Assembly: GCF_050920415.1 (NCBI RefSeq)
Contig: NZ_CP169309.1
Source: Escherichia coli
GTDB taxonomy: Bacteria; Pseudomonadota; Gammaproteobacteria; Enterobacterales; Enterobacteriaceae
Length of the DNA: 64,000 nt
Strand: one strand, 5' to 3'
In this document: positions 56,787-60,552 of the stretch, piece after piece
Position numbering within the stretch: the first letter of the stretch is position 1
Layout: every line of letters begins with the position of its first letter
Notes under the pieces: generated by a model
The model's database searches: none
Seen by the model: only the letters and a program-made list of their open reading frames with translations
Told to the model about the DNA's origin: nothing
Program-made: the position numbers and the translations under genes

Positions 56787-58070
56787 TTAGTCTTTAGCTG
56801 TTGCATTTTGTTTATGAAACAGTTCACGGAACACCGGATAAATATCATCCTGGTCGCGGATATGCTGCATCGCAAAATTGTCGAAAGTAGATTGCAGATG
56901 TTCATATTCTCGCCACAGTGTCTGATGAGCGCGACGGGTAATTTCGATATAGCTGTAATAACGAACAACGGGCAATAATTTTTTCGCCAGGATTTCATGG
57001 CAAAGTGGAGAGTCATCGGCCCAGTTATCGCCGTCCGATGCTTGTGCCGCGTAAATATTCCATTGCGCCGGGTTATAACGCTCTTTCACCACCTCATCCA
57101 TCAGTTTCAGGGCGCTGGAAACAATGGTACCGCCAGTTTCCTGTGAGTAGAAAAACTCATGTTCATCGACTTCTTTCGCCTGGGTATGGTGCCGGATGTA
57201 AACGACTTCCACGTTCTTATACGTTCTGCTAAGGAACAGATACAGCAGAATATAAAAACGCTTAGCCATATCTTTAGTGGACTGATCCATTGAACCCGAA
57301 ACGTCCATCAGGCAAAACATCACTGCCTGGCTGGAGGGATCGGGTCGTTTTTCGTAGTTCTTGTATCGTAAATCGAAGGTGTCAATAAAAGGGACGCGTT
57401 CAATTTTGGCACGTAATTCTGCAATTTCTTTGCGCAGACGTTCCTCTTCCAGCAGTTGCGCAGGCTCACTGTTGCTGATGATGGCCAAATTCTCTTCCAG
57501 CGCATGAAGTTCCCGCCGCTTGCCCGCCGTCATGGCTGTGCGTCGCGCCAGTGAGTTCTGCAATGAACGCACAACGCTGATATTGGCAGGAACGCCGTTA
57601 GCGGTATAACCCGCCCGATGCGTTTTATATTCGGTCAGCTGGCGTTGTTGGTTTTGTTTCAGATTCGGTAAGGCCAAATCTTCAAAGAGCAGATCAAGAT
57701 ACTCATCTTTCGAAATCTGAAAGACAAATTCATCCTGACCTTCACCATCCTGGCTGGCCTGGCCCTGACCACTGCCGGAACCACCGCCGCCGCCCTGGGG
57801 GCGTTCAATGCGGTCGTTCTGGACGAAATGGTCATTGCCCGGATGAACGCGGTGGCGCAGGCCGCCACGTCCCTGATGAAACATCGGTTCGCTAATATCT
57901 TCCGTTGGAATGGATACGGACTCGCCGCTGTCGACGTCAGTCACCGAACGCTTATTAATGGCCTCGGAGATCGACTGTTTAATTTGCGCTTTATAACGGC
58001 GTAAAAAACGCTGGCGATTCACCATGCTTTTGTTTTTGCCGTTCAGACGCCGGTCAATAAACCAGGTCAT
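56787..58070 (-). CDS. yeaH: DUF444/UPF0229 protein YeaH
   Basis: ORF 427 aa; downstream partner of yeaG. Confidence 0.9.
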
Positions 58071-58182
58071 ATGCCCCCCGTACTACATTTGCCAACTGTT
58101 TGCTACGCCTGTGTTGCCGCTTCTCTGGCCCACGGTTCGCTGTCGTTGTAGGCCCGGTAGCATGCGTACCGGGCCATGGTTG

Positions 58183-60117
58183 TTAAGACGATTTACGTAC
58201 GCGCAAATACCATTCGCACAGTAAACGCACCTGTTTACGGGTGTAGCCTTTTTCCATCATACGGTCGACAAAATCGTCGTGTTTCTTCTGCTCGTCGGTT
58301 GACGTTTTGGCGTTAAACGAAATAACTGGCAACAGCTCCTCGGTATTAGAGAACATTTTCTTCTCAATAACCGTGCGCAGTTTTTCATAGCTGGTCCAGT
58401 TCGGATTGCGTCCGCTGTTATTCGCTCTGGCGCGCAGTACGAAGTTGACAATCTCGTTGCGGAAATCTTTTGGATTACTGATCCCCGCCGGTTTCTCAAT
58501 TTTCTCCAGCTCAGCGTTGAGAGATTCGCGGTCAAATAGCTGCCCGGTATCCGGGTCGCGATACTCCTGATCCTGAATCCAGAAATCTGCATACGTGACA
58601 TAACGGTCAAAAATGTTTTGTCCATATTCAGAATAGGATTCAAGATACGCAGTCTGAATCTCTTTACCGATAAACTCAGCATATTTCGGAATCAAGTAAC
58701 CTTTCAGGAACTCGAGATAACGCTCAGCCTGCTCCTGAGGGAACTGCTCGCGCTCGATCTGCTGTTCCAGGACGTAGAACAGATGGACCGGGTTTGCCGC
58801 CACTTCTACATGATCGAAGTTGAACACGCGAGAGAGGATCTTAAACGCAAAACGCGTGGACAGACCGTTCATCCCTTCATCAACGCCTGCGTAGTCACGA
58901 TATTCCTGATACGACTTGGCTTTCGGATCGGTGTCTTTCAGACTTTCGCCATCATAAACCCGCATCTTCGAATAAATGCTGGAGTTTTCCGGCTCTTTCA
59001 GACGCGAAAGAATGGAAAAACGAGACAGCGTTTCCAGCGTGCCAGGTGCGCAGGGGGCGTGAGTCAGTTCACTGTGATTAAGCAATTTCTCGTAGATTTT
59101 GATCTCTTCGGAAATACGCAAGCAATATGGCACCTTCACGATATAAACACGATCGAGGAAGGCTTCGTTGTTCTTGTTATTACGGAAAGTGACCCATTCG
59201 GATTCGTTCGAATGGGCGAGAATAATCCCGTTAAACGGCAAGGCGGAGATACCTTCCGTCCCGTTGTAGTTACCTTCCTGAGTGGCGGTTAACAGGGGAT
59301 GCAGCACTTTAATCGGTGCTTTAAACATCTCGACAAACTCCATGATCCCCTGGTTGGCGCGGCATAGTGCACCGGAATATCCGTAGGCGTCTGGATCGTT
59401 CTGCGCGTAGTGTTCGAGTTTACGGATATCGACTTTCCCTACCAGCGCTGAGATGTCCTGGTTGTTCTCATCGCCAGGTTCCGTTTTGGCGATAGCAATT
59501 TGTTGCAGAATTGACGGCCAGACCTTTACCACCCGGAACTTAGTAATATCGCCACCAAATTCATGCAGGCGTTTTGCTGCCCACGGCGACATGATGGTGC
59601 CAAGATAGCGTCGAGGAATGCCATACTCTTTTTCCAGAATCTGCGCATCTTCTTGCGGATTGAAAAGACAGAACGGATGATCGTTGACCGGGCTCCGCTC
59701 ACCGTTAGCGCTTAATACATAGATCGGCACGAGCTGCATTAATGATTTCAGTCGCTCAGCAAGCGATGATTTACCCCCACCCACAGGCCCCAGCAGATAC
59801 AGGATTTGTTTCTTCTCCTCCAGCCCCTGAGCCGCGTGTTTCAGATAAGAGACAATCTGTTCAATCGCGTCTTCCATGCCGTAAAACTCTTCAAAGGCCG
59901 GGTAACGTGCAATGACCCGGTTAGAAAAGAGTCGAGAAAGTCTGGGTTCCTGGGCTGTATCGACCATGACAGGCTCACCGATAGCCATCAATAGCCGCTC
60001 AGCCGCGTTGGCATAAGCACTGCGATCTTGCCGACAAGTGGTAAGAAACTCCTGCAGTGTGAACTCTTCGTCCTTGGCAGCTTCATATCGCTGGCGATAG
60101 TGATCGAATATATTCAT
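58183..60117 (-). CDS. yeaG: PrkA-family serine protein kinase YeaG
   Basis: ORF 644 aa; Walker A GPVGGGKSS visible. Confidence 0.95.
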   Translation of the reverse strand: MNIFDHYRQRYEAAKDEEFTLQEFLTTCRQDRSAYANAAERLLMAIGEPVMVDTAQEPRLSRLFSNRVIARYPAFEEFYGMEDAIEQIVSYLKHAAQGLEEKKQILYLLGPVGGGKSSLAERLKSLMQLVPIYVLSANGERSPVNDHPFCLFNPQEDAQILEKEYGIPRRYLGTIMSPWAAKRLHEFGGDITKFRVVKVWPSILQQIAIAKTEPGDENNQDISALVGKVDIRKLEHYAQNDPDAYGYSGALCRANQGIMEFVEMFKAPIKVLHPLLTATQEGNYNGTEGISALPFNGIILAHSNESEWVTFRNNKNNEAFLDRVYIVKVPYCLRISEEIKIYEKLLNHSELTHAPCAPGTLETLSRFSILSRLKEPENSSIYSKMRVYDGESLKDTDPKAKSYQEYRDYAGVDEGMNGLSTRFAFKILSRVFNFDHVEVAANPVHLFYVLEQQIEREQFPQEQAERYLEFLKGYLIPKYAEFIGKEIQTAYLESYSEYGQNIFDRYVTYADFWIQDQEYRDPDTGQLFDRESLNAELEKIEKPAGISNPKDFRNEIVNFVLRARANNSGRNPNWTSYEKLRTVIEKKMFSNTEELLPVISFNAKTSTDEQKKHDDFVDRMMEKGYTRKQVRLLCEWYLRVRKSS

Positions 60118-60220
60118 GGTATGCCGTCCTTTCGTTTTTTAGCACAGGTTAAGAGCCGTTCATATGAATAGTAGAGGCTCCCGGAAGAGGTAAACTGAAC
60201 GACGTCTCTTGCTAAAACAC

Positions 60221-60236
60221 AGCAACTCTCATGCCA
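60221..60236 (-). promoter_or_regulatory. candidate sigma54 (-24/-12) promoter of yeaG-yeaH
   Basis: minus strand reads TGGCAT-GAGAG-TTGCT versus consensus TGGCAC-N5-TTGCW; ~100 nt upstream of yeaG ATG. Confidence 0.55.
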
Positions 60237-60552
60237 TTTTATCGACGATGAGAACAACGTGCCCGGTGATACACCTTCAAAATTAAGCGTAGATGGCAAA
60301 TGGAAAACTTGCCTGCACGGCTTTCTTAATTTCAATGGCATATCAACAACTCATCCATAAAATTTGCATAATTAATGTAAAGACCAGGGTCGCCAGTAAC
60401 GCGTAATTCATTTGGCTGTAAGCGTGGTGTCATCTGCGTCAGGAAAATTAAACAGTTACTTTAAAAAATGAAAACGTAAAAAGGTTGGGTTTCGATGTAT
60501 TGACGGGTAAACTTTGTCGCCCGCTAAACATTTGTTTAAGGAATGATTAATT

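Follow-up and report, generated by a model that had tools for sequence, protein, structure and literature searches.

glnAp2 combines a −24/−12 element with activation by phosphorylated NtrC (NtrC~P) under nitrogen limitation and with a second promoter in tandem that is served by a different sigma factor. It carries two strong NtrC dyads, at about −108 and −140. We analyzed the promoter of the yeaG-yeaH (yeaGH) operon in a 64,000-nucleotide (nt) stretch of Escherichia coli DNA (contig NZ_CP169309.1 of assembly GCF_050920415.1; "the window" refers to this whole stretch). The yeaGH promoter resembles glnAp2 in its −24/−12 element, in its activation by NtrC~P, and in its tandem arrangement. Unlike glnAp2, it has no dyad with ≤4 mismatches within 435 bp, and the only candidates lie 1.1 kb away. 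A second relative is relA P4, which lies inside rlmD. Like the yeaGH promoter, relA P4 belongs to the non-scavenging part of the NtrC regulon and links nitrogen stress to general stress (PMC4066584), and it too is far from the gene that it serves or from its neighbors. It differs in that its NtrC site is within ~260 bp, and a fragment from −261 to +75 suffices in vitro (PMC4066584).

For the gene products, the comparison is with prkA-yhbH (plus spoVR) of Bacillus subtilis, which shares with yeaGH a PrkA/DUF444 pair, a SpoVR partner, and a Walker A-dependent AAA+ protein. The B. subtilis genes have a role in sporulation, unlike yeaGH, and B. subtilis PrkA is reported to be a protease (PMC9512850), whereas YeaG carries a kinase annotation and has reported kinase activity in vitro. 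For the promoter itself, the closest described cases are the yeaG promoters of E. coli K-12 and Salmonella (STM1285), which represent the same locus and have an identical 17-mer; in K-12, the σ54 element, the σS-type −10 element, and the distal boxes described below are also identical. Over 60100..61400, the window and K-12 MG1655 are collinear and free of indels; every element discussed here is identical, and published K-12 coordinates therefore transfer directly. We found no difference of substance between the two promoters: 6 of 461 bases differ, all as single-base changes in the 435-bp mipA-yeaG spacer that leave the named elements untouched. Only 18 genomes are ≥99% identical to the window over the spacer, but this seeming distance from most E. 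coli strains is trivial, since K-12 itself differs at these 6 positions.

We conclude, with a probability of about 0.9, that the site ahead of yeaG is the documented NtrC-activated σ54 promoter of the E. coli yeaGH operon and that it is one of at least two tandem promoters.

The σ54 promoter of the yeaGH operon

A preliminary description of this DNA had placed a 16-mer, TGGCATGAGAGTTGCT, at 60236..60221 on the minus strand and had read it as a σ54 −24/−12 element with correct spacing, about 100 nt upstream of the yeaG ATG. We found the 16-mer at that position. Its GG (60235/60234) and GC (60223/60222) doublets are exactly 10 nt apart, which is the canonical spacing, and the 3′ end of the motif lies 104 nt before the ATG (A at 60117). 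Compared with TGGCAC-N5-TTGCW, the sequence TGGCAT-GAGAG-TTGCT has one mismatch, a C-to-T change that is common among true sites. If C60222 is taken as −12, the predicted +1 falls at 60210, giving a leader of 93 nt to the yeaG ATG; this equals the "distance 93" given for σ54 site OS18 (PMC4591121). TGGCAY-N5-TTGCW has a single exact match in the window, with 0.26 matches expected and at least one match in 24 of 100 shuffles. We then scored the element, as had been suggested, with a position weight matrix (PWM) derived from the 41 other intergenic-sense sites detected by σ54 chromatin immunoprecipitation sequencing (ChIP-seq) (PMC4591121, Table 1), leaving out the site of yeaG itself. The score was 15.8 bits, ranking 20 of 41, the median of true sites.

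Published work reports σ54 and NtrC at this promoter. In E. coli K-12, ChIP-seq site OS18 is the identical 17-mer, ATGGCATGAGAGTTGCT, 93 nt from yeaG, with a FAT value of 6 and flagged as previously predicted (PMC4591121). In Salmonella, the same sequence at STM1285 is a σ54 site identified by ChIP on microarrays, with a ratio of 4.1, and yeaGH RNA was 2.5-fold higher, in a σ54-dependent manner, in rpoS-defective Salmonella with a constitutive enhancer-binding protein (PMC3844500). NtrC ChIP-seq of nitrogen-starved E. coli detected a yeaGH peak at 1864821-1864901 (PMC4066584); these coordinates convert to 60228..60148 of the window. Both NtrC and RNA polymerase (RNAP) occupy the yeaG promoter in nitrogen-starved cells, and the Ntr activation, followed by quantitative PCR, was ascribed to σ54 (Figueira et al., PMC4664914). 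A 2018 review lists two adjacent promoters for yeaGH, one dependent on RNAP with σ54 (Eσ54) and the other on RNAP with σ38 (Eσ38) (PMC6299236). In 2018, yeaGH was described as the one transcription unit of the NtrC regulon with a role that was, up to that time, poorly understood. The yeaGH σ54 promoter is real and already known, being documented in the σ54/NtrC regulons of both E. coli and Salmonella, and the promoter itself adds nothing new; the preliminary description had likewise called this a known locus rather than a new one.

To assess conservation, we used 80 yeaG loci from species-representative genomes, including an Enterobacterales subset of 30 with readable upstream DNA. Within E. 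coli, the mipA-yeaG spacer is present in 5425 of 5426 complete genomes. YeaG is 82 to 100% identical over the Enterobacterales, Vibrionales, Aeromonadales, and Alteromonadales loci. A σ54 element of ≥14 bits was present in 24 of the 30 readable Enterobacterales loci, at about −95 to −130 and farther upstream in Brenneria and Rahnella. The element occurs in 14 genera: Escherichia, Citrobacter, Pseudescherichia, Pluralibacter, Superficieibacter, Enterobacter, Kosakonia, Erwinia, Serratia, Brenneria, Rahnella, Pantoea, Dickeya, and Tatumella. Enterobacterales in which it was not found are Yersinia (a decayed remnant), Edwardsiella, two loci with another upstream gene, a Pantoea symbiont, and a metagenome-assembled genome of Pseudocitrobacter; in "Candidatus Pantoea persica", the element is degenerate (10.2 bits, with TTGC changed to TTTC). 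None was found upstream of yeaG in 47 loci of Vibrionales, Aeromonadales, and Alteromonadales. Since the element is confined to Enterobacterales while yeaG occurs beyond them, the σ54 input looks, from this distribution, like an Enterobacterales addition to a far older operon.

In the mechanism that we propose, Eσ54 would bind GG(−24)/GC(−12), at 60235..60222, as a closed complex; published ChIP data demonstrate the binding. NtrC~P would remodel this complex during nitrogen starvation, in keeping with the published NtrC and RNAP occupancy and mRNA induction. The predicted transcript would begin at ~60210 and would extend through the 93-nt leader, yeaG, the 112-nt gap, and yeaH to the terminator at 56782..56754, a start and an extent that we deduce from the sequence. 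A σS-type promoter ~68 nt upstream (−10 at 60291..60286) would add a general-stress input, as suggested by its motif, its conservation, and the statement in the literature. The PrkA-family AAA+ protein and the DUF444 protein would work with YcgB/SpoVR in stress adaptation; their biochemistry is unsettled (kinase or Lon-like protease).

NtrC boxes and alternative readings

We scanned for the NtrC consensus TGCACC-N5-GGTGCA at ≤3 and ≤4 mismatches and for the core of Shimada et al., GCAnnAnnnTnnTGC. A scan of 60240..60450 for half-sites, which the preliminary description had proposed, gave no match. For comparison, we used 27 Enterobacterales loci with mipA beside yeaG, 23 of which have the σ54 element (σ54 positive) and 4 of which do not (σ54 negative). 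In the proximal spacers of these loci, NtrC boxes occurred in 3 of 27, compared to ~19% by chance, and are therefore not enriched. Proximal NtrC sites for the yeaGH promoter were rejected on the basis of these results, the scans having found none in 60118..60552.

NtrC-like boxes are found on the far side of mipA. Box C, which is the nearest good box and matches the core GCAnnAnnnTnnTGC exactly, lies in the 89-nt mipA-yeaE spacer, with its center 52 nt from box A and 1134 nt upstream of the center of the σ54 element. In other genera, box A reads TGCAC-N7-GTGCA. The consensus of the aligned region (alignment A3) is TGA-n-GTGCAC-N7-GTGCA-TTnnn-TGCA-nnAAAA-stem-loop-stem-TTT-TGCATTATnGTGGTGCA, in which the half-sites are kept and the inner bases vary. 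TGCA...TGCA always brackets the mipA terminator in alignment A3, such that the terminator is physically interwoven with the NtrC-like half-sites. The terminator stem itself shows compensatory changes across genera (CAGGGCG, CGGGGCG, TGGGGTG, and AGGGGCG). A full-text literature search with the box C sequence found no paper, and we found no report of the enhancer position of the yeaGH promoter in the literature that we read. RNA genes around the distal boxes or in the yeaG leader were considered and rejected: an Rfam search of these regions (E values up to 1) gave two sub-threshold matches at chance level.

Several points weigh against an NtrC-activated σ54 promoter at this site. In simulations with a first-order Markov model, 47% of 64-kb sequences held a site of ≥15.8 bits, so that the motif is not significant alone; given this result and the matches in shuffled sequence, we rejected sequence-only significance as proof of a σ54 site. 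Since motif statistics alone are insufficient, the case for a correctly positioned σ54 element ahead of yeaG rests on its position, its cross-genus conservation, and the published ChIP data, which together support it. The 435-bp spacer, 60118..60552, contains neither an NtrC box with ≤4 mismatches nor the core GCAnnAnnnTnnTGC. yeaG is not mentioned in the main text or one supplement file of a genomic SELEX (gSELEX) paper (PMC8743547), and hence no RpoN-holoenzyme target at yeaG is listed in those parts. Lastly, a cloned Salmonella yeaG promoter fusion was not σ54 dependent, which was explained by other promoters masking the σ54 promoter (PMC3844500). That fusion was as active in an rpoN deletion strain as in the wild type (PMC3844500), as would be expected if the motif were a silent σ54 binding site, with yeaGH driven by σS/σ70 only and with indirect nitrogen effects (NtrC to relA to ppGpp to σS). 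Such silence would also fit with the many σ54 ChIP sites that are not known promoters (PMC4591121), with the activation of relA by NtrC (PMC4066584), and with the strong σS-type −10 element that adjoins the motif. We nonetheless consider a silent site very unlikely, because NtrC itself cross-links at the yeaG promoter in nitrogen-starved cells (PMC4066584), because the rise in yeaGH RNA in Salmonella was σ54 dependent in an rpoS-defective background (PMC3844500), and because the element is at a fixed distance in 14 genera while its flanks diverge.

A separate question is where NtrC acts on the σ54 promoter. One reading, which complements the conclusion that this is an NtrC-activated promoter and which we regard as plausible but tentative, is that the box cluster at the mipA terminator (61303..61371) is a remote enhancer: NtrC~P on boxes A and C, 52 bp (about five helical turns) apart, would loop out 1.13 kb, including the whole of mipA. 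In favor of this reading, NtrC sites moved kilobases from glnAp2 reportedly still activate it (Reitzer and Magasanik, 1986). The lack of boxes and of enrichment in the proximal spacers favors a remote enhancer, as does the conservation of the distal half-sites around variable inner bases. Within a zone of ≤113 nt past the mipA stop codon, a box with ≤3 mismatches was found in 17 of the 23 σ54-positive loci, compared to 2.8% of background windows, and a box with ≤2 mismatches in 10 of 23, compared to 0.27%; the four σ54-negative loci had none (0/4). yeaE is absent from 10 of the 27 loci, where mipA is convergent with yeaD. Six of the eight σ54-positive loci that lack yeaE keep the boxes, in a spacer between convergent gene ends, and box C of one of them, Serratia grimesii, is the best of all, with one mismatch. 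In Yersinia, box C and the σ54 element both survive as decayed remnants. In vitro, NtrC binds the mipA-yeaE spacer: Shimada et al. reported a gSELEX peak at MG1655 position 1,863,654, verified the binding in gel shift assays, and attributed the site to yeaE (PMC8743547). This position converts to ~61395 of the window, 32 nt from the box C center. No conserved σ54 element faces yeaE; the best in the E. coli spacer region scores 6.9 bits, and a comparison of 14 genera showed no conserved one in the 900 nt upstream. A σ54 promoter of yeaE as the owner of the distal boxes was rejected, since nothing was conserved and since NtrC half-sites overlap the two matches that scored 10.6 and 12.8 bits. Against a remote enhancer, published NtrC ChIP-seq data place a peak on the promoter and list none at the distal site (PMC4066584). 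Five σ54-positive loci lack good boxes, and in two Citrobacter species the boxes adjoin the yeaE ribosome-binding site rather than mipA, in Citrobacter youngae ~2.5 kb from yeaG. Moreover, all four σ54-negative loci also lack an adjacent yeaE, and the co-loss of boxes and σ54 element is therefore confounded; the counts are not phylogenetically independent.

The other reading of the boxes is that they belong to yeaE, as published, and that the yeaGH promoter uses weak, unrecognizable proximal NtrC sites or NtrC~P from solution, given its high concentration in nitrogen-starved cells. We consider this arrangement possible but rather doubtful. It accords with the published assignment, which is backed by the gel shift and by a 3.1-fold, rpoN- and ntrC-dependent increase in yeaE mRNA upon nitrogen depletion (PMC8743547), an induction that also counts against a remote enhancer of yeaGH. 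Box C stops 17 nt short of the yeaE ATG and in Citrobacter remains beside yeaE, and the in vivo NtrC peak is at the yeaGH promoter. In addition, a partly dyadic conserved block, with the consensus GCATGCAAGTTTTGCAAATGC, lies at about −90 to −108 from the σ54 start, which is a classical enhancer distance (alignment A1, of the proximal spacers). This block, however, differs from the NtrC consensus at ≥5 positions, and its divergence is greatest in E. coli itself; no σ54-like element of >7 bits faces yeaE in the spacer, and none is conserved in the 900 nt upstream; the boxes persist in genomes without yeaE; and the targets listed from gSELEX with NtrC alone include none in the mipA-yeaG spacer (PMC8743547). 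A promoter-centered NtrC ChIP peak is weak evidence either way, because other NtrC peaks also coincide with σ54 motif centers and not with the enhancer sites: those at glnK, gltI, glnH, ddpX, astC, nac, and argT (PMC4066584) do so (motif centers from PMC4591121). At astC, ~350 bp separate the ChIP peak from the NtrC peak of gSELEX. The NtrC ChIP signal may report NtrC looped onto Eσ54. If the cluster is a remote enhancer, it would be a rare natural case in bacteria of kilobase-range activation across an intervening unrelated gene, the divergently transcribed mipA; it would make the published assignment of the NtrC site to yeaE incomplete or wrong, and it would explain the missing yeaG target in in vitro NtrC binding screens.

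The loci without yeaE (L002, L009, L011, L014, L019, L022, L023, L024, L028, and L029) are scattered over several families. From its distribution among these genomes, the absence of yeaE implies repeated independent loss or gain.

Gene products and other features of the locus

The RefSeq gene order is msrB, gapA, yeaD, yeaE, and mipA on one side of the spacer and yeaG, yeaH, and cdgI on the other. Features are listed in Table 1.

Table 1. Features of the yeaGH locus in window coordinates
Feature	Position	Strand	Description
yeaH	56787..58070	-	427 aa; DUF444 / YeaH-YhbH family
yeaG	58183..60117	-	644 aa; PrkA-family AAA+ protein, annotated as Ser kinase in RefSeq
σ54 −24/−12 element ATGGCATGAGAGTTGCT	60221..60237	-	GG 60235/60234, GC 60223/60222; predicted start 60210
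σS-type extended −10 element TCTACGCTTAA	60283..60293	-	Hexamer TACGCT 60291..60286, C at −13; inferred start ~60278
Second −10-like block CTCTACTATTCAT	60164..60176	-	Core CTCTACTAT 60176..60168; within leader; kept in Enterobacteriaceae only (alignment A1)
Conserved block GATGAGTTGTTGATATGCCATTGAAATT	60325..60352	-	Most widely conserved spacer stretch, Escherichia to Edwardsiella (alignment A1)
Distal NtrC-like box A TGCATCTTTCCAGGGCA	61303..61319	.	3 mismatches in E. coli; 4 nt past mipA stop
Distal NtrC-like box C TGCATTACGGTGGTGCA	61355..61371	.	2 mismatches; ends 17 nt before yeaE ATG
mipA intrinsic terminator	61335..61355	+	CAGGGCG-TAA-CGCCCTG + TTTT; between boxes A and C; TGCA on both sides
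Hairpin in yeaG-yeaH gap	58151..58175	-	GC rich; 112-nt gap; perfect 9-bp stem GGCCCGGTA-loop-TACCGGGCC; no U-tract on sense strand
Intrinsic terminator, operon end	56754..56782	-	Directly after yeaH stop; 11-pair stem, then TTTTT

The protein families named in the preliminary description were borne out. YeaG has the Walker A motif GPVGGGKSS at residues 110 to 118 and matches Pfam families AAA_PrkA (PF08298; 2e-187) and PrkA (PF06798; 1.7e-70), as well as NCBIfam model PRK15455 (NF011999) with 1342 bits (cutoff, 576). yeaH, directly 3′ of yeaG, encodes a DUF444 protein (PF04285; 4.8e-191; residues 4 to 421) that matches NCBIfam PRK05325.1-3 with 843 bits (cutoff, 466). The two genes form a PrkA/DUF444 pair of poorly defined function, as had been claimed. 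The label "kinase operon" held with respect to PrkA-family identity; its kinase part is contested. Weak in vitro kinase activity has been reported for YeaG. For B. subtilis PrkA, the reported activity is that of an ATP-dependent, Lon-like protease and not that of a kinase (PMC9512850), and the label "kinase" on YeaG is therefore provisional. Strong cofitness links yeaG, yeaH, and ycgB in six bacteria (bioRxiv 10.1101/072470), and a yeaG deletion strain survives sustained nitrogen starvation more poorly (PMC4664914). The YeaG proteins of Vibrionales, Aeromonadales, and Alteromonadales (L033-L081) are 82 to 89% identical to that of E. coli, which is unusually high given the unsettled biochemistry. 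The hairpin between the two genes may act in mRNA processing or stability instead of terminating transcription.

The σS extended −10 consensus is KCTAYRCTTAA, with C at −13. TCTACGCTTAA fits this consensus and is its sole occurrence in the window (0.05 expected). It is kept from Escherichia to Dickeya and Edwardsiella in alignment A1, a wider range than that of the σ54 element. Judged by its sequence, it is a candidate for the published Eσ38 promoter that adjoins the σ54 promoter. The core CTCTACTAT within the leader was also considered as the σS promoter and was demoted, since TCTACGCTTAA, located upstream, is a better match and is more widely conserved in the alignment. The surrounding block, CTCTACTATTCAT, is a possible third promoter, of the σ70/σS type. 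A promoter independent of both σ54 and σS has been inferred for Salmonella yeaG (PMC3844500).

The GATGAGTTGTTGATATGCCATTGAAATT block overlaps σ70-like matches that face mipA and is a candidate binding site or piece of a divergent mipA promoter. It lies at about −47 to −74 from the inferred σS start, and its Serratia version is the dyad AGTCAT-TGAT-ATGACT.

The top σ54 PWM score in the window, 16.4 bits, belongs to TTGGCACGGTTTTTTCA, at 55270..55286 on the minus strand. This site is in the sense orientation inside the 3′ end of cdgI (yeaI), ~105 nt before the stop codon and upstream of the next gene on the same strand. The main text of the σ54 ChIP-seq paper does not name it (PMC4591121). As in glnHp2, TC replaces GC at −12. 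A further σ54-like element, TTGGCATAAGCACTGCG, which scores 13.1 bits, is at 60008..60024 on the plus strand, antisense to yeaG within its first 110 nt and facing mipA.

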